Shown here one piece after another: positions 11,840 to 19,037 of a stretch of DNA of 39,317 bases. The stretch lies in IMG/VR virus record IMGVR_UViG_2695420380_000015. One strand, given 5' to 3'. How positions within the stretch are numbered: position 1 is the stretch's first letter; each line of letters starts with the position of its first letter. Under the pieces are notes generated by a model. It did not search any database. It was given only the letters and a program-made list of their open reading frames with translations, and was not told where the DNA came from. The position numbers were made by a program, and so were the translations under genes. Origin of the DNA: a virus (lineage: Duplodnaviria > Heunggongvirae > Uroviricota > Caudoviricetes).

Positions 11840-12041
11840 ATGGCTGGCTGACTGTCTGGTCCCTTCTGTGCCGCAGCCGTTCACGTTTGGCGCATCGGTC
11901 ACTTACAACCTGCAACTGCTGGCGGTGATTAAGAACTGCAACGTGGACAAGGCCAGCATCCGCCGTCTGGAGGTACGGCGACAGCATGAATTTACTGATA
12001 TGGCCGGAACGTCTGCTGTTCCGGCAGGAAAGACGAAGTAA
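11670..12041 (+). CDS. o-spanin (Rz1-like outer-membrane lipoprotein), partly embedded in the i-spanin gene in another frame; start uncertain (ATG 11670 or TTG 11715)
   Basis: Lipobox L-T-G-C (LFLCLMMWLTGCGG) after a basic/hydrophobic leader; Pro-rich mature part; overlaps and extends past the i-spanin gene. Confidence 0.6.
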   Translation: MKNSRTCSTARNSRALSAGRWQRCLRPLFLCLMMWLTGCGGPSVKYVPVKPVPIPAEWLADCLVPSVPQPFTFGASVTYNLQLLAVIKNCNVDKASIRRLEVRRQHEFTDMAGTSAVPAGKTK

Positions 12042-12051
12042 GGAAAAAGGT

Positions 12052-12279
12052 ATGGATGATTCAGATTGTGCTCAGGCAGTCATGGAGCGGGCAACAGAAC
12101 GCGCCCTTTGTGACCGGCTGACACGTAAGTGCCGGGTGGAGGATACTCCGGGCAGGCGTGTATGCGCAGACTGCGGGGGTGACATTCCGGCCGCCCGTCT
12201 GGTTGCCGTGCCGGATGCCATCCGTTGTGTGAACTGCCAGAGCATCATGGAGGCCGGTCATGTGGATCAGCATCGTTAA
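12052..12279 (+). CDS. TraR/DksA-family C4 zinc-finger protein
   Basis: ATG at 12052 after AAGGAAAAAGG; CxxC-x17-CxxC pattern (CADCGGDIPAARLVAVPDAIRCVNC). Confidence 0.65.
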   Translation: MDDSDCAQAVMERATERALCDRLTRKCRVEDTPGRRVCADCGGDIPAARLVAVPDAIRCVNCQSIMEAGHVDQHR

Positions 12280-12571
12280 AGATTATGTCGTGCCGATCCT
12301 GTCGGCAACGGCCACGGCCGGGGGGATCTTTATGGCGCTGATGCGCAAAACCTTTGTCCCCCGCGAGGCCTTTGAAAAACTCTCCGACCGGGTTGAGCGG
12401 GTGGAGAGCCGGATTTCCGGCCTGCCCACGCAGCAGGAGGTGAACAGACTCAATATCGAAATCACCACCCTGCGCGGTGAGCTTAAGGCCACCAATGCCA
12501 CCCTGAAATCCGTCTCCCACCAGAACGAACTGCTGCTGGAGCAGGCTGTAAGGAAAAAACACAATGAGTGA
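12260..12571 (+). CDS. Membrane-anchored coiled-coil protein at the position of Mu gp25 (possible endolysin 'releasin' or holin-like lysis factor)
   Basis: N-terminal TM segment (VVPILSATATAGGIFMALM) followed by a coiled-coil region; located at the end of the lysis cassette. Confidence 0.5.
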   Translation: MWISIVKDYVVPILSATATAGGIFMALMRKTFVPREAFEKLSDRVERVESRISGLPTQQEVNRLNIEITTLRGELKATNATLKSVSHQNELLLEQAVRKKHNE

Positions 12572-12854
12572 TTTCATTACTGAAGATCAGCGTCTTGTCA
12601 TTCTGCGGTCGCTGGCGGATTACAACGGCGAACTGGGCGAATCCGTGCTTCAGGACTGCCTGGATGATTACGGCCACCGCGTGTCCCGCGACACCGTGCA
12701 TACCCATATTGCCTGGCTTGCCGAGCAGGGACTGGTGCGTAAGCGCACGCTTGTTAACGGTTATTTCATCGTTGAACTGACCGGCCGGGGTCAGGATGTG
12801 GCGGAAGGCCGCGCCACCGTTCCGGGTGTGAAGAAACCACGCGCAAGGGGGTAA
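12564..12854 (+). CDS. Hypothetical late protein (Mu gp26 position)
   Basis: 96-aa ORF coupled to its neighbours; no motif recognised. Confidence 0.5.
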   Translation: MSDFITEDQRLVILRSLADYNGELGESVLQDCLDDYGHRVSRDTVHTHIAWLAEQGLVRKRTLVNGYFIVELTGRGQDVAEGRATVPGVKKPRARG

Positions 12855-12856
12855 CG

Positions 12857-13438
12857 ATGGATAAGCCAACGCGTGGCCGTGTACGCAAGGTGGATTTGCT
12901 CCCCGACAGCATCCGTAAGCCGCTGCTGGAAATGCTGCGTGAAAAACGCCTGACGCAGGTCCAGATCCGCGAGGAAATCAACCGCCTGATCCGTGAGGCG
13001 GGTCTGCCGGAAGAGCAGCAGCTTTCACCGGCGGCCATCAGCCGGGAGGCCTCCCGTAATGAGCTGATTGCCCGTAACCTGCGTGATTTACGCGAGCAGA
13101 CAAAAGCCATGATGGCCGAACTGGGGGACAAGCCGACCGGTGAAACCACGGCACTGATTCTGGAAATGTCCCGCGCCCTGATGTACCGCCGTCTGCGTGC
13201 TGCCACCGAATCCCTGAACAGCGACAGCGATGTGGATATGCGCCTTATTAAGGACATCCTCCTGTCGGCACAGCGTGCGGAAAGTGCCGCCGAGCGCAGC
13301 ATTAAGCGTGAAAAAGAAATCCGGGCCGCATTTGCTGAAGAGATGGCGAACGCCGTCACCGACGAGTTGCGCGGCGTGGATGGCATGAGCGAGCAGATAG
13401 AATTCCGTATCAGGCAGATGCTGCTTGGTAAGGCGTAG
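12857..13438 (+). CDS. Mu gp27-like protein (putative terminase small subunit)
   Basis: 193-aa basic, helical protein directly upstream of the large terminase; N-terminal motif MDKPTRGRVRKVDLLPDSIRKPLLEMLRE consistent with Mu gp27-like proteins as remembered. Confidence 0.6.
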   Translation: MDKPTRGRVRKVDLLPDSIRKPLLEMLREKRLTQVQIREEINRLIREAGLPEEQQLSPAAISREASRNELIARNLRDLREQTKAMMAELGDKPTGETTALILEMSRALMYRRLRAATESLNSDSDVDMRLIKDILLSAQRAESAAERSIKREKEIRAAFAEEMANAVTDELRGVDGMSEQIEFRIRQMLLGKA

Positions 13439-13697: not shown

Positions 13698-15361
13698 TGA
13701 ACAAAGCCAAAGAAACGTCTCCTTCACTGATACAAATGACGCCTCCCCGCAAAATTGATCTGTCCGGTGAAAAAGCCCTGCTGGGCGTGGATGTGCCGGA
13801 CAGACTTGATTTGCCCGGTGATATGCCGGTGTTTCTGGATTATCAGGCCCGCTGGTTTGAGGATGAAAGTCAGGTCTGCATTGCGGAAAAATCCCGCCGC
13901 ACCGGTCTTACCTGGGCGGAAGCCGGGCGTAACGTCATTACTGCTGCAAAACCGAAGCGTCGTGGTGGCCGCAATGTGTTTTATGTGGGATCAAAGCAGG
14001 AGATGGCGCTGGAATATATTTCTGCCTGCGCCCTGTTCTCCCGCGCCTTTAACCAGCTGGCGGATGCTGATGTGTATGAGCAGACCTTCTGGGATCGGGA
14101 TAAAAAAGAAGAAATTCTGACCTACATGATCCGCTTTCCGAACAGTGGATTCAAAATTCAGGCACTGTCTTCCCGTCCGTCAAACCTGCGCGGCCTTCAG
14201 GGGGATGTGGTGATTGATGAAGCCGCGTTCCACGAGTCACTGGATGAGCTTCTCAAGGCGGCAATGGCGCTCACTATGTGGGGCGCGCGCGTGCGTATTA
14301 TCTCCACGCATAACGGCGTCGATAATCTGTTTAATCAGTACATTCAGGAAGCCCGCGAGGGGCGCAAGGATTACAGCGTCCACCGCATAACCCTGGATGA
14401 TGCCATTGCGGACGGGCTGTACCGTCGTATCTGTTACGTCACCGATCAGGAATGGTCACCGGAAAGCGAGCAGAAATGGCGTGATGATCTCTACAAAAAC
14501 GCCCCGACCCGTGAGGATGCCGACGAGGAATACGGCTGTATCCCGAAAAAATCCGGCGGTGCCTATATTCCTCACGCGCTTATTGAAATGGCGATGATCC
14601 GCGACATCCCGATTCTGACGTTTGAAGCCCCGGACAACTTCATCAGCCGTGCCGCATGGCTGCGTGAATCGGAAGTTTTAACCTGGTGTGAAGAACATTT
14701 AAAACCGCTTTTAGAGAAATTAAATCCCCGTTCCCGCTTCAGCTTCGGGGAAGACTTTGCCCGCACCGGTGACCTGTCCTGCTTTGTGCTGCTGGAAATC
14801 ACCGAATCCCTGGCAAAGCGCGAGGTGTTTCGCGTGGAGCTGCGCAACCTGCCGTATGCCCAGCAGGAACAGGTGATGATGTACATCCTGACCCGCGTTC
14901 CGGCGCTGGTCGGTGCGGCGTTCGACGCCACCGGTAACGGCGGCTATCTGGCAGAAGCCGCACTGCTGGCCTTTGGCCCGGACATCATCGACTGCGTGAT
15001 GTTGTCGCCGAAGTGGTACGGCGAGTGGATGCCAAAACTGAAAGCCGAGTTTGAAGATCAGAATATCCTCGTCGCCCGCCATCAGACCACGCTTGATGAT
15101 TTGCGCCATGTGAAGGTGGTGAATGGTATCCCGCAAATCGACAAGGGGCGCACGAAGGACCAGAACGCAACGGCTGCGAACGCCCGCCGCCATGGTGATT
15201 TTGCCGTGGCACTCTGTATGGCAAACCGGGCGTCATACATGGAGGGATTCATCCTGGATGAATCAGCCTGTCAGGCGCTGCCGGAGCGGTCGCGGGCAAT
15301 GGAGGGCGGTTATCGTGATGACGATGAGGCATATCATGAATTTGAACGGGGGTGCTGGTAG
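13697..15361 (+). CDS. Terminase large subunit (Mu gp28-like)
   Basis: 554-aa ORF with ATPase-like motifs (VFYVGSKQ, VVIDEAAF) and a C-terminal nuclease-like region; conserved position. Confidence 0.85.
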   Translation: MNKAKETSPSLIQMTPPRKIDLSGEKALLGVDVPDRLDLPGDMPVFLDYQARWFEDESQVCIAEKSRRTGLTWAEAGRNVITAAKPKRRGGRNVFYVGSKQEMALEYISACALFSRAFNQLADADVYEQTFWDRDKKEEILTYMIRFPNSGFKIQALSSRPSNLRGLQGDVVIDEAAFHESLDELLKAAMALTMWGARVRIISTHNGVDNLFNQYIQEAREGRKDYSVHRITLDDAIADGLYRRICYVTDQEWSPESEQKWRDDLYKNAPTREDADEEYGCIPKKSGGAYIPHALIEMAMIRDIPILTFEAPDNFISRAAWLRESEVLTWCEEHLKPLLEKLNPRSRFSFGEDFARTGDLSCFVLLEITESLAKREVFRVELRNLPYAQQEQVMMYILTRVPALVGAAFDATGNGGYLAEAALLAFGPDIIDCVMLSPKWYGEWMPKLKAEFEDQNILVARHQTTLDDLRHVKVVNGIPQIDKGRTKDQNATAANARRHGDFAVALCMANRASYMEGFILDESACQALPERSRAMEGGYRDDDEAYHEFERGCW

Positions 15362-16950
15362 TGGGACGCATAATTGATCTTGACGGAAAACCTCTCTCCT
15401 TTGACCCGGAGATGCAGAGTACCGCGCTGGATATTCCGCAGATTGCCAGCCGTTATGTTGAGCATCCCGCCTCGGGTATCACCCCGAACCGGGCGGCGCA
15501 GTGCCTTCGGGGGGCTGAACGTGGCGACCTGATTGCCCAGTCCGATCTGGCGGCTGACATTGAAGAAAAGGACACCCACCTTTTTGCGGAGCTGGGCAAG
15601 CGACGTCTTGCCATTCAGGGGGTGCCATGGAGTATTGAGCCGCCACCGAACGCCAGCGCGAATGAGAAAAAGGACGCGGAAATGCTCGACGAATATCTGC
15701 ATTCCGCAGACTGGTTTGATGCCATGCTGTTTGACGCCACGGATGCCATCCTGAAGGGCTATTCCTGCATGGAAATTGAGCACGGGATGCTCGGTAAAAT
15801 GCACATCATCCGCGCCATCCGCTGGCGTGACAGCGGGCATTTCTGCCTTAACCCGGATGATTTGAGCGAACTGCGGCTGCGTGACGGCAGCCATGCCGGG
15901 GTGGCGTTTCAGCCTTTTGGCTGGATAGTGCATCAGTCACGTTCACGGACCGGTTACGGTGGCGCAACGGGGCTTGTCAGGACGCTTATCTGGCCGTTCA
16001 TTTTCAAAAACTATTCCGTGCGCGATCTGGCCGAATTTCTGGAGGTGTACGGACTGCCGATGAAGGTCGGGAAATACCCGTCCGGGGCAACACCGGAGCA
16101 GAAAAGCGCCCTGATGCGGGCGGTGATGGATATCGGGCGACGTACAGGCGGGATCATCCCGGCCGGGATGTCGCTGGAATTTCAGGCGGCAGCAAACGGT
16201 CAGGCCGATCCATTTGAAACCATGATTTCGTGGGGGGAGCGTTCCATCTCCAAAGCAATACTCGGCGGCACGCTGACCACGGAAGCCGGAGACAAAGGCG
16301 CGCGCTCGCTGGGTGAGGTGCATAACGAGGTGCGCCGGGAAATCAGGGATTCTGATTTACGGCAGCTGGCTGCAACCCTGAACCGCGATCTGGTGTATCC
16401 GCTGTACGCCCTGAACACCACGCACACTATTGATATCCGCCGTCTGCCACGTATCTGCTTCCAGACCAAAGAACCAGGTGATATCACCAAAATCACCAGT
16501 GCGGTGATGCAGCTCAGTACGGGGATGGATATTTCTGATCCCTGGATACGGGAGCAGACCGGTATTCCGCAGCCCACGCCCGGTGAAGCCATATTCCGTG
16601 TCCGTCAGAGTGGCAATGAACCGGCTCAGACCGACAGGGAAACACCACCGGAAAAACAGGAAAAAACAGAGCAGACGGCGCTGTCAGCCAGACTGCCGGA
16701 AGCGAAAAGCACGCCGCGTGATGAACTGGATGATATGGGGGACGCGGTGCCTGCCCGCCGCTTACAGGAGGCCATCGACCCGGTACTGGAGCCGGTCATT
16801 GATGCCATCAGAACGCGGGGGCTGGCGGATGCGCTGGCAGACCTGCCTGCCCTTTATCGTGAAATGGATGATTCCCGCCTGATGACGCTGCTCAGTGATG
16901 CCATGTTCGCTGCGGAAATGAAGGGGATGCTGGATGACACAGGGGATTGA
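15352..16950 (+). CDS. Portal protein (Mu gp29-like)
   Basis: 532-aa ORF overlapping the terminase stop (GTG start); position and size typical of the Mu portal. Confidence 0.8.
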   Translation: MLVVGRIIDLDGKPLSFDPEMQSTALDIPQIASRYVEHPASGITPNRAAQCLRGAERGDLIAQSDLAADIEEKDTHLFAELGKRRLAIQGVPWSIEPPPNASANEKKDAEMLDEYLHSADWFDAMLFDATDAILKGYSCMEIEHGMLGKMHIIRAIRWRDSGHFCLNPDDLSELRLRDGSHAGVAFQPFGWIVHQSRSRTGYGGATGLVRTLIWPFIFKNYSVRDLAEFLEVYGLPMKVGKYPSGATPEQKSALMRAVMDIGRRTGGIIPAGMSLEFQAAANGQADPFETMISWGERSISKAILGGTLTTEAGDKGARSLGEVHNEVRREIRDSDLRQLAATLNRDLVYPLYALNTTHTIDIRRLPRICFQTKEPGDITKITSAVMQLSTGMDISDPWIREQTGIPQPTPGEAIFRVRQSGNEPAQTDRETPPEKQEKTEQTALSARLPEAKSTPRDELDDMGDAVPARRLQEAIDPVLEPVIDAIRTRGLADALADLPALYREMDDSRLMTLLSDAMFAAEMKGMLDDTGD

Positions 16951-18265
16951 TTTAGGTTATGCCGCCACGCTTCCCTCAAAAGAGGCGGTGGCATACTTCC
17001 GCGCCAAAGGGGAGCATATCAGCTGGAACTGGTTCGAAACAGACGCGGATGTTCATGCCCGTTCATTCACGGCGGCAAAAGTGGCACGCCTGGACGTACT
17101 GACCACACTACAGGCGGAAGTGCAGCGTGCTGTTGATGAGGGCATTTCACAGAAAGCATTTATCCGCACGCTGACACCCCGCCTGCAAAAGCTGGGATGG
17201 TGGGGAAAGCAGATTGTGGTGGACAGTGCAGGGAACGCGGAAGAAGTGCAGCTTGGCAGCCCCCGCCGTCTGGCGCTGATTTACAACGTGAACACCCGTG
17301 TGGCTTACAATGCCGGGCGTTACACGCAGATGATGAACAACACGGACACGCATCCGTTCTGGCAGTATGTGGCGGTGATGGACAGCCGCACCCGCCCGGC
17401 ACATTCCGCCCTTAACGGGCTGGTATTCCGCTATGATGATCCGTTCTGGAATACTCACTACCCGCCCAATGGCTGGAACTGTCGCTGCCGTGTGCGGCCA
17501 TTGTCTCAGGCCCGTCTGGATGCAATGGGGTTATCCGTTTCATCCGGTGAGGATCATCTCTCCACCCGCAATGTTGAGGCTGGCGTGGATAAACAGACCG
17601 GAGAAGTCAGAGAAATGCCGGTGACCACATATTCAGATGGCACCAGAACCATGACACCGGATGTGGGCTGGTCATATAACCCCGGCTCGGCAGCGTTCGG
17701 CACAGACCAGGCGCTGATCCGCAAACTGATCGAGGTGAAAAGCCCGGCGTTACGGGAAATGGTGGTTCAGGAGATGAACAACAGCCCGGAGCGGCAGCTG
17801 GCGTTCCGCATCTGGGCAAAAAACATCATGCAGACCCGGCGAGGTGGTAACGATATCCGCACGCTGGGCTTTATGACTGAAAGCATTGCGCAGGCAGTGG
17901 AAAGCCGGACGGGAACGCCACCGGCCCGCCTGCTGGCGATGAGCGGTAAAAATGTGCTCCATGCAGACAGTGTGAAACATCAGAATGACGGCATCGCCCT
18001 GATGCCAGAGGACTTCGGGCGCTTACCGGCAATGCTGGCAAAGCCAAAAGCGGTGCTGTGGGACAAACGGCACAACAATCTGATGTATATCGTGGAAAAT
18101 AAGGATGGCAGTGTGCAGATTGCCGTTAATGCACCGTACAGTCTGAAACGTCAGCCCGACAAACTGGATGTGATTGTGAATGCTTACCGGGTTATCAATA
18201 TGGATAAGCTGAAATCGGATATCCGGGGCGGAATGCTTGAGGTGCTGGAAGGACAAATTGATTAA
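16934..18265 (+). CDS. Head morphogenesis protein (Mu F / gp30-like)
   Basis: 443-aa ORF overlapping the portal gene end; Mu F-like position. Confidence 0.75.
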   Translation: MTQGIDLGYAATLPSKEAVAYFRAKGEHISWNWFETDADVHARSFTAAKVARLDVLTTLQAEVQRAVDEGISQKAFIRTLTPRLQKLGWWGKQIVVDSAGNAEEVQLGSPRRLALIYNVNTRVAYNAGRYTQMMNNTDTHPFWQYVAVMDSRTRPAHSALNGLVFRYDDPFWNTHYPPNGWNCRCRVRPLSQARLDAMGLSVSSGEDHLSTRNVEAGVDKQTGEVREMPVTTYSDGTRTMTPDVGWSYNPGSAAFGTDQALIRKLIEVKSPALREMVVQEMNNSPERQLAFRIWAKNIMQTRRGGNDIRTLGFMTESIAQAVESRTGTPPARLLAMSGKNVLHADSVKHQNDGIALMPEDFGRLPAMLAKPKAVLWDKRHNNLMYIVENKDGSVQIAVNAPYSLKRQPDKLDVIVNAYRVINMDKLKSDIRGGMLEVLEGQID

Positions 18266-18386
18266 CGGTCAGTGGCGGGGGTCGAACCCGCATACATGAT
18301 CCACCCGGAGGCAGGCACCGACTTTACCAGTTAAGCGTACACTGACCGCCTGTTTATTTTATATTCATCTTTTATGCGGAGGCAAT

Positions 18387-18860
18387 ATGTCATCCATTGA
18401 TGCGGCGGTCGTGGTGGACGTTGCGCGTCTCCAGCGGGTCTTTGCCCGGCTTCAGTTTGTGGGAAGCGGAAAAGACCTGGCACGCAGTGTGGCGGAGAGT
18501 CTTCTGTCATCGTCAGAAATGGCATTTGAGCAGGAAAAAGAGCCGGATGGTGAACGCTGGCATGACTGGTCAGATCCTTACCGTGAGTGGCGTACCCGTA
18601 AGGGATACACGCCCGGCAAAATCCTGACGCTGAACGGCGATCTGGCCCGCCGCCTGACCACGGATTATGGCGATACCTGGGCGCTGATTGGATCAAATGA
18701 ACCTTATGCAGCCATTCATCAGTGGGGGGGCCTGCCTGGTATGCCACCGGGACCGGCGGCCATTGGCGCACGTCCGTATATGGGCTTTGATCAGGTGGCA
18801 GAACAGGAGATCATGGACGAAATCAGAAAACGCTTTAAAAAGGCCACAGAAACGCCGTAA
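18387..18860 (+). CDS. Virion morphogenesis protein (Mu G-like)
   Basis: 157-aa ORF with RBS GGAGG; conserved position before the protease/scaffold gene. Confidence 0.7.
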   Translation: MSSIDAAVVVDVARLQRVFARLQFVGSGKDLARSVAESLLSSSEMAFEQEKEPDGERWHDWSDPYREWRTRKGYTPGKILTLNGDLARRLTTDYGDTWALIGSNEPYAAIHQWGGLPGMPPGPAAIGARPYMGFDQVAEQEIMDEIRKRFKKATETP

Positions 18861-19037
18861 TGGTTTAAGGTATACAAACGCATTACCTTACCCTCTTCAG
18901 GCGCGTGTCGTGATTTTCTAACCTGTATTTAACGGGCTTTAAAATCTGCGTGAAGCGCCTTTCTCATTTTTCCCCTGTCAGCACTTTCTGAAGTCCCGCA
19001 AAACCTGCCCCGAAAAACACCGGCTTATGCTGCCGGA

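Follow-up and report, generated by a model that had tools for sequence, protein, structure and literature searches.

The stretch of DNA considered here, termed the window in the following (39,317 nucleotides), carries a Mu-like E. coli prophage. The head genes include a Mu-type portal gene and the genes of a MuF-like head morphogenesis protein (F) and a gpG-like virion morphogenesis protein (G); a protease gene and the gpT major head gene are also found around the junction of F and G, and all are located on the plus strand. F and G are separated by a spacer of 121 bp, which lies between the stop of F (18265) and the start of G (18387) and had been counted as 122 bp in the first-pass annotation. 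The region is 94–97 % identical to Mu-like prophages of many E. coli genomes and to two Stx-phage records. In phage Mu, F and G overlap by 4 nt without any spacer, and the family model described below has no match there; the element in the spacer is therefore an insertion in this phage lineage. Within the spacer, the only small open reading frames (ORFs) are frames of 20–32 aa. The spacer between G and the protease gene (18861–19037, 177 bp) is the positional counterpart of the Mu G–I spacer, which bears the central gyrase cut site in the annotation of the Mu record. The features of the locus are the following:

15352–16950, plus strand: portal gene, Mu-type
16934–18265, plus strand: upstream neighbour F, MuF-like head morphogenesis protein (Pfam Phage_Mu_F and MuF_C)
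18264–18274, minus strand: closing (acceptor-like) helix, 3' strand CACUGACCGUU, without CCA; positions 73–76 pair with −1 to −4
18275–18291, minus strand: T arm GCGGG-UUCGACC-CCCGC, perfect stem
18292–18295, minus strand: variable loop GUAU; its last U (equivalent of position 48) can pair with A15
18296–18318, minus strand: central arm GUGCCUGCCUCCGGGUGGAUCAU in place of an anticodon arm; irregular hairpin with a UCCG tetraloop cap and no 7-nt anticodon loop
18319–18337, minus strand: D arm CGCUU / AACUGGUA / AAG(U)CG, from the Rfam alignment; 5-bp stem with one bulge, loop AACUGGUA with G18 and G19
18339–18338, minus strand: UA, equivalent to U8 and A9
18340–18350, minus strand: closing helix, 5' strand GGCGGUCAGUG; tRNA positions 1–7 and four extra paired bases (−4 to −1)
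18356–18361, minus strand: predicted −10 hexamer TAAAAT, ending 5 nt upstream of the first paired base
18380–18385, minus strand: predicted −35-like hexamer TTGCCT (promoter scan)
18387–18860, plus strand: downstream neighbour G, gpG-like virion morphogenesis protein (Pfam Phage_tail_S; 54 % identity to Mu G)

Fold of the minus-strand RNA

The minus strand from 18264 to 18350 folds as a cloverleaf that is composed of a closing helix, a D arm and a T arm and contains the bases responsible for tertiary contacts in tRNAs. The plus strand reads CGGTCAGTG at 18266–18274, GCGGGGGTCGAACCCGC at 18275–18291 and CACTGACCG at 18340–18348; on the minus strand, GCGGG-UUCGACC-CCCGC is immediately followed by CACUGACCG. 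The T-arm-like hairpin and the acceptor-like inverted repeat noticed on the minus strand in the first-pass annotation are both present, exactly where they had been placed. The helix, which had been given as 7–9 bp, comprises 9–11 bp and runs to 11 pairs (18340–18350 with 18264–18274), the outer ones extending over the final two bases of the stop codon of F. The 3' flank of the element is C-G-U-U and not CCA. The same annotation had recognised neither a canonical D arm nor a canonical anticodon arm; a D arm can be assigned to 18319–18337, and the anticodon arm is indeed absent. Taken as a single sequence, the element has an unremarkable fold energy compared with shuffled sequences (z = −1.8), and its support comes from comparative data, not from this energy.

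The position of the anticodon arm is occupied by a hairpin in all 23 distinct variants of the central arm; it starts immediately behind the D stem, measures 17–34 nt and has a mean z of −2.0 against shuffles. The apex loop comprises 3–5 nt in 16 of the 23 variants, many of them with stable tetraloops (UUCG, UCCG, GUAA), and its sequence is unrelated between lineages. A 7-nt loop with U33 occurs in none of the 23. Judged from sequence, the RNA cannot decode and possesses no conserved single-stranded seed. The apex in the window (UGCCUCCG, 18305–18312, minus strand) is perfectly complementary over 8 nt to the Shine-Dalgarno sequence of G (CGGAGGCA, 18377–18384, plus strand). As a candidate anti-Shine-Dalgarno seed this match was rejected; it is absent in other lineages (L013, L031), and the complementarity is therefore probably a coincidence.

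Conservation and covariation among relatives

The comparison covers 34 distinct sequences, the sources of which are Mu-like prophages and an integrative satellite. With the G protein as query, 35 loci were obtained from viral contigs, and all loci whose G protein is at least 61 % identical carry the element in the F–G spacer on the opposite strand, with the sole exception of L037 (64 %); it is also absent from the three most distant loci (L039–L041), in which G identity is 25–34 %. Further distant members were collected from viral and metagenome contigs by pattern scans with a family-specific D-arm signature and the T loop. A scan of genome contigs with the G protein gave 2 loci only, as its peptide patterns were unspecific. 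When 50,697 phage records were searched with the element by blastn, it was found only in two Stx-phage records with an inserted Mu-like phage, the remaining matches being T arms of real tRNAs; a match in a Salmonella phage, for example, was discarded as an ordinary tRNA-Glu inside a cluster of 22 tRNAs.

In a MAFFT alignment of 27 distinct sequences (A2), which is gap-free outside the central arm, 91.5 % of the cells of the proposed pairs hold standard pairs, compared with 78.6 % after shuffling (none of 500 shuffles reached the observed value) and 37–58 % in slid controls, and 13 pairs are changed on both sides. In a model-fitted alignment of the 34 distinct sequences, 97.2 % of the cells pair and 105 cells are compensatory, values to be read with the leaning of this alignment towards the structure of the model. 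Compensatory changes are present in 13 of 19 pairs; in the model-fitted alignment, changes on both sides affect 8 of the 9 closing-helix pairs, 3 pairs of the D stem and 2 of the T stem. Covariation also extends to the two pairs that lie outside a normal 7-bp acceptor stem, −1:73 being seen as GC, UA, AU, GU or UG and −2:74 as AU, CG, GC, GU or UG. Pair 18:34 of the D stem (numbering of alignment A3) is UG, GC or UA, and T-stem pairs alternate between GC and GU, CG and UA, and GC and AU. The paired positions, the conservation of which had been proposed as a check in the first-pass annotation, are consequently kept with compensatory changes in homologous prophages.

The stem cells also reveal the strand. 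Read on the minus strand they contain 37 G-U pairs versus 4 A-C combinations, and the minus strand is therefore the selected RNA strand, since G-U pairs of this strand become mismatches in a plus-strand RNA or in DNA cruciforms. This asymmetry bears on an alternative in which the structure belongs to the late mRNA of the plus strand and acts between the cistrons F and G, either stabilising the message or partially terminating transcription. The plus strand does fold (−29.9 kcal/mol), and the fold is followed by a U-rich stretch; however, a plus-strand RNA would have many mismatches, the U-rich stretch corresponds to the −10 box read on the opposite strand, the Rfam tRNA match is confined to the minus strand, and members occur in either orientation relative to the neighbouring genes. 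We consider this alternative very improbable.

The bases that shape the tRNA core are nearly invariant: U8, A9, A14, A15, G18, G19 and A21 as well as U54, U55, C56 and R57 are found in 34 of 34 sequences, A58 in 32 and U48, the partner of A15, in 33. The core, which comprises U8 to the end of the D arm together with the variable loop and the T arm, is 83–95 % identical to that of the window in loci where the fourfold degenerate sites of G are only 29–43 % identical. Conservation of the core where the synonymous sites of G are saturated argues for purifying selection on the element and not for decay. Together with the Rfam match described below, the covarying stems bear out the initial reading as a tRNA-like structured element on the minus strand, and we are highly confident that it constitutes a functional tRNA-like RNA gene.

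Several members deviate in details. The T loop carries A58C (UUCGC), which would break U54-A58, in six viral contigs (L007, L008, L010, L016, L017, L020), and G57A (UUCAA) in the O157 type (L003, L024, L025). In L004 and L013, G is 97–98 % identical to that of the window, yet the element allele and the 3' end of F differ, and in L031, where G is only 74 % identical, the element is nearly identical; the 3' end of F and the element appear to be exchanged together as a recombination module. Two short contigs contain two separated copies each, L085 (1198–1284 and 1536–1626) and L079 (115–200 and 749–836), and the duplication in L085 includes, besides the element, its promoter and the beginning of the G gene. 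A distant member (L094, 635–721) encodes ACCA right after a 7-position acceptor stem with an A1/C72 mismatch and may be closer to an ancestral real tRNA.

The first-pass annotation had offered a degenerate tRNA and a fragment of a former integration target among its explanations. A functionless, decaying tRNA pseudogene or integration-site scar would account for the lack of an anticodon loop and of CCA, the blank ARAGORN result and the T-loop changes A58C (L007-type contigs) and G57A (O157 type), but it would have to be reconciled with compensatory changes in all stems, a core conserved far above neutral sites, a conserved promoter and a complete cloverleaf in place of a 3' fragment. The term degenerate applies in so far as the RNA is unable to decode; decay is contradicted by the signs of purifying selection. 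The integration-target explanation finds no support: the cloverleaf is complete and has its own conserved predicted promoter, the G-U pairs show selection on RNA, and the element is located within the head operon, where the corresponding genes of Mu adjoin without a spacer. Overall, we see scarcely any room for a functionless relic.

Annotation and comparison with known RNAs

Standard detectors largely pass over the element. A sensitive Rfam scan of 601 nt (18000–18600) gave a match to the tRNA family RF00005 on the minus strand (18267–18346) with 31.0 bits (threshold 29, E = 1.6e-4), so that this check named in the first-pass annotation turned out in favour of a tRNA relationship. The alignment covers the acceptor, D and T arms and skips the anticodon arm as a 24-nt insertion. 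The default scan of the whole window (standard filters, gathering thresholds) returned no Rfam match, and with ARAGORN neither a tRNA nor a tmRNA was called at the element, be it in the window or in about 30 related loci. With E values of up to 10, cmscan of 18000–18600 added to the tRNA match only two others, STnc480 and saliva-tongue-1, which were dismissed as chance-level matches.

In many E. coli genomes, RefSeq lists a minus-strand 'tRNA-OTHER' whose coordinates are exactly the homologous ones, with no isotype at the F–G site; the O157-type variant (G57A) is left without a tRNA annotation. The Mu-like-prophage version is present in about 220 complete E. coli genomes, in many of which it is labelled only 'tRNA-OTHER'; about 90 E. 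coli genomes match a query made from a satellite array, of which only 14 cover most of the query. Array units are annotated as tRNA-OTHER, except for one unit named 'tRNA-Tyr', a label that is probably wrong. The locus is thus already known in the sense that annotation pipelines flag it as a tRNA of undetermined type; a literature search that included exact sequence strings found no description of the element, and a paper in which Sp18, a prophage of E. coli O157 Sakai, is mentioned turned out to be unrelated. Our family model separates members (60–95 bits, except for a weak second copy in L079 with 41 bits) from genuine phage tRNAs (at most 38 bits).

A genuine decoding tRNA with an unusual anticodon arm would be in line with the Rfam score above the gathering threshold and with the 'tRNA-Tyr' call on one array unit. 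It would require an anticodon loop, but a 7-nt loop with U33 is missing from all 23 distinct central arms, whose loops have unrelated sequences; the 3' end is engaged in pairing, and the annotation of the F–G site names no isotype. A decoding function is hardly conceivable. The asymmetry between the strands, covariation and the lack of an anticodon loop disfavour three readings, namely the plus-strand structure, the pseudogene or scar and the true tRNA.

The element shares with canonical tRNA genes including those of phages (RF00005) a 7-bp acceptor core, a D arm with G18 and G19, a T arm with UUCGA, and U8, A14, A15-U48, A58 and G53-C61. It differs from them in the absence of an anticodon loop, in a 5-bp D stem that contains a bulge and comes after an extra C following A9, and in an acceptor helix extended to 8–18 bp, in which positions 73 and 74 are paired and no CCA is present. 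The tRNA genes of E. coli all encode CCA. Since two defining features, the anticodon arm and a free CCA end, were tested and found to be absent, the element is best filed with non-decoding tRNA-like RNAs and not with the decoding tRNA family.

Several such RNAs are known. Bacillus cereus tRNA-Other, mammalian mascRNA and the vtRNAs of gammaherpesvirus 68 are uncharged tRNA-like RNAs with a defective or shortened anticodon arm, which are released by RNase P or RNase Z and possess a free 3' end that receives CCA. The element resembles them in being tRNA-shaped and non-decoding, and it differs in its paired end, in the coincidence of the predicted transcription start with the helix start, and in host and genomic setting. 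The C4 RNA of phages P1 and P7, for which Rfam has a family, and the CI RNA of satellite P4 are RNase P-processed antisense immunity RNAs. Like the element, they are small structured RNAs of phages or satellites with tRNA-like features that act untranslated; unlike them, the element has no Rfam C4 match (18000–18600, E up to 10) and no conserved exposed seed complementary to a target, its apex loops being mostly stable unrelated tetraloops. The bacterial Y RNA YrlA contains a non-decoding tRNA-like domain that mimics the elbow formed by the D and T loops, and its 5' and 3' ends form a Ro60-binding helix in place of an anticodon stem. The element is likewise a non-coding mimic of the tRNA elbow without a decoding function; its ends, in contrast, form an acceptor-like helix, its anticodon arm is replaced by a capped hairpin, and no Rfam match to Y RNA was obtained. 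We know of no Ro60 ortholog in E. coli. A tmRNA was not reported by ARAGORN, and the Rfam clan scan keeps tRNA as the best match.

Transcription unit, genomic contexts and proposed role

The promoter scan predicts a sigma-70-like site on the minus strand (TTGCCT-N18-TAAAAT, 18385–18356) with 9 of 12 matches. The −35 hexamer is the reverse complement of part of the Shine-Dalgarno region of G (GGAGGCAA) and is also constrained by the ribosome-binding site of G, so that its conservation is ambiguous. The −10 box overlaps neither this ribosome-binding site nor either of the two reading frames. In all single-unit members, a −10 box with 5–6 of 6 matches, in some cases with an extended TG, ends 3–9 nt and mostly 5–6 nt upstream of the start of the closing helix, which varies from 8 to 18 bp. 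This conserved spacing places the predicted transcription start at the base of the closing helix, at about 18349–18350. A scan of the window found no terminator after the element, and the transcript may therefore run antisense into F; the antisense read-through RNA could itself be the functional part.

The element is not confined to the F–G junction. An integrative element of about 11 kb, a satellite inserted between yicC and dinD in E. coli, has at its end two to three units of the tRNA-like family, which differ in their central arms, are arranged in tandem and are separated by U-rich spacers. The satellite encodes an integrase, an antirepressor (Ant), Icd-like proteins, a toprim protein, a DUF927 protein and regulators of the PerC and Mor families, and the Mor-family activator hints that the satellite may parasitise Mu-like helper phages. 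A terminator read by eye after the array was left unconfirmed by the terminator scan. In a second group of gpT-type Mu-like phages, the element is located directly upstream of variable cargo ORFs on the same strand. These contexts are:

L102, 6025–6339 (= NZ_AP045179.1, about 75.5–75.8 kb): tandem array
L097, 1126–1440: tandem array
L087, L091 and L095: tandem arrays
L051: element 13250–13336, cargo ORF 11859–13040
L063: element 423–509, cargo ORF 561–1055
L101: element 316–403, cargo ORF 581–1444

The satellite arrays and the same-strand cargo contexts show that the element is bound neither to the F–G junction nor to an antisense position.

Both observations bear on a regulatory role in cis. 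A strong minus-strand promoter firing against the late head operon might reduce the leaky expression of head genes in a lysogen; the RNA itself, or a longer product of read-through, would pair with the F–G junction mRNA or interfere with late transcription, and the tRNA shape would only be a stabilising 5' cap. At all F–G sites the element lies antisense to the late operon, its promoter overlaps the ribosome-binding site of G, antisense transcription into F is likely given the missing terminator, and in the window the apex UGCCUCCG could pair with the Shine-Dalgarno sequence CGGAGGCA. A stabilising cap, however, would not require invariant D-loop, T-loop and tertiary bases, the complementarity of the apex is missing in L013 and L031, and the family also occurs in intergenic arrays of a satellite and ahead of cargo genes on its own strand, settings in which it has no antisense partner. 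A cis-antisense regulator is in our opinion unlikely.

The cargo contexts in turn suggest that the element might be a 5' leader or expression module for accessory genes (morons), i.e. a promoter combined with a tRNA-like processing or stability element, the cargo of which is missing at the F–G site. In L051, L063 and L101 it directly precedes the cargo ORF, one of the cargo ORFs being a DUF2971 protein that matches the PADLOC candidate defence system PDC-S31, and L051 and L063 have the element in common and diverge about 25 nt downstream of it. The F–G version, on the other hand, is followed on its own strand by no ORF that is conserved in any lineage (an antisense ORF of 77 aa at 18023–18256, minus strand, is interrupted by stops in other lineages), it is kept with covariation although synonymous sites of G are saturated, and the arrays of two to three units end without any cargo gene. 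This explanation appears less probable still than a regulator in cis.

The reading that we prefer, to which we give about an even chance, is that of a stand-alone gene for a stable, non-decoding tRNA mimic, which was inserted in the fashion of a moron between the MuF-like and gpG-like genes on the opposite strand. The gene is tRNA-derived; both working ends of a tRNA are gone, and the L-shaped body has been retained. Phage morons are independent transcription units inserted between late genes, and the element corresponds to them in occupying a junction that is spacerless in Mu, in its own predicted promoter and in an orientation independent of the late operon; it differs in encoding an RNA and not a protein and in having no detected terminator. 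The primary transcript of such a gene would need little or no 5' processing, and its paired 5'-triphosphate end together with the recessed 3' end could confer resistance to decay. As both working ends of a tRNA would be sealed, the RNA could be neither charged nor used for decoding, leaving the L-shaped body and its elbow as the functional surface presumably kept by selection. The units of the arrays resemble ordinary RNase P substrates (U at −1), and the argument from sealed ends is therefore not valid for every member; L094, with its encoded ACCA, likewise speaks against it.

Because the body and the elbow seem to be what selection has kept, the mimic would most likely act in trans by occupying a factor that recognises the shape of tRNA. 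Candidate targets are RNase P, an enzyme acting on T loops, or a nuclease or toxin that is directed at tRNA and belongs to the host or to a competitor, and the RNA expressed by the prophage would then be a decoy or sponge. The tandem arrays in the satellite, which are antisense to no gene, argue for a trans-acting and dose-dependent role that fits a sponge. Against it, no defence or toxin gene was found to be consistently linked to the element. The decoy mechanism is inferred, and we put it forward as a tentative and rather doubtful proposal.

Nucleases that target tRNAs play a major part in defence against phages and in competition between bacteria, and the known viral answer to them consists of replacement tRNAs carried by the virus. 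On a more speculative note, which we think improbable as a whole, the family might represent an undescribed class of RNAs of mobile elements: tRNA 'body doubles' with sealed ends, present in Mu-like prophages and a Mor-encoding satellite and sometimes in tandem, which would serve as decoys for a factor recognising the tRNA elbow, for example by neutralising a tRNA-cleaving immune nuclease or toxin or by modulating RNase P. Standard tools miss such an element (ARAGORN, default Rfam scan) or mislabel it ('tRNA-Tyr'). A strongly conserved RNA that consists of the tRNA body only and is shared by a satellite and prophages would suggest another strategy, for example a decoy or sponge, or a novel way of using the tRNA shape in regulation.
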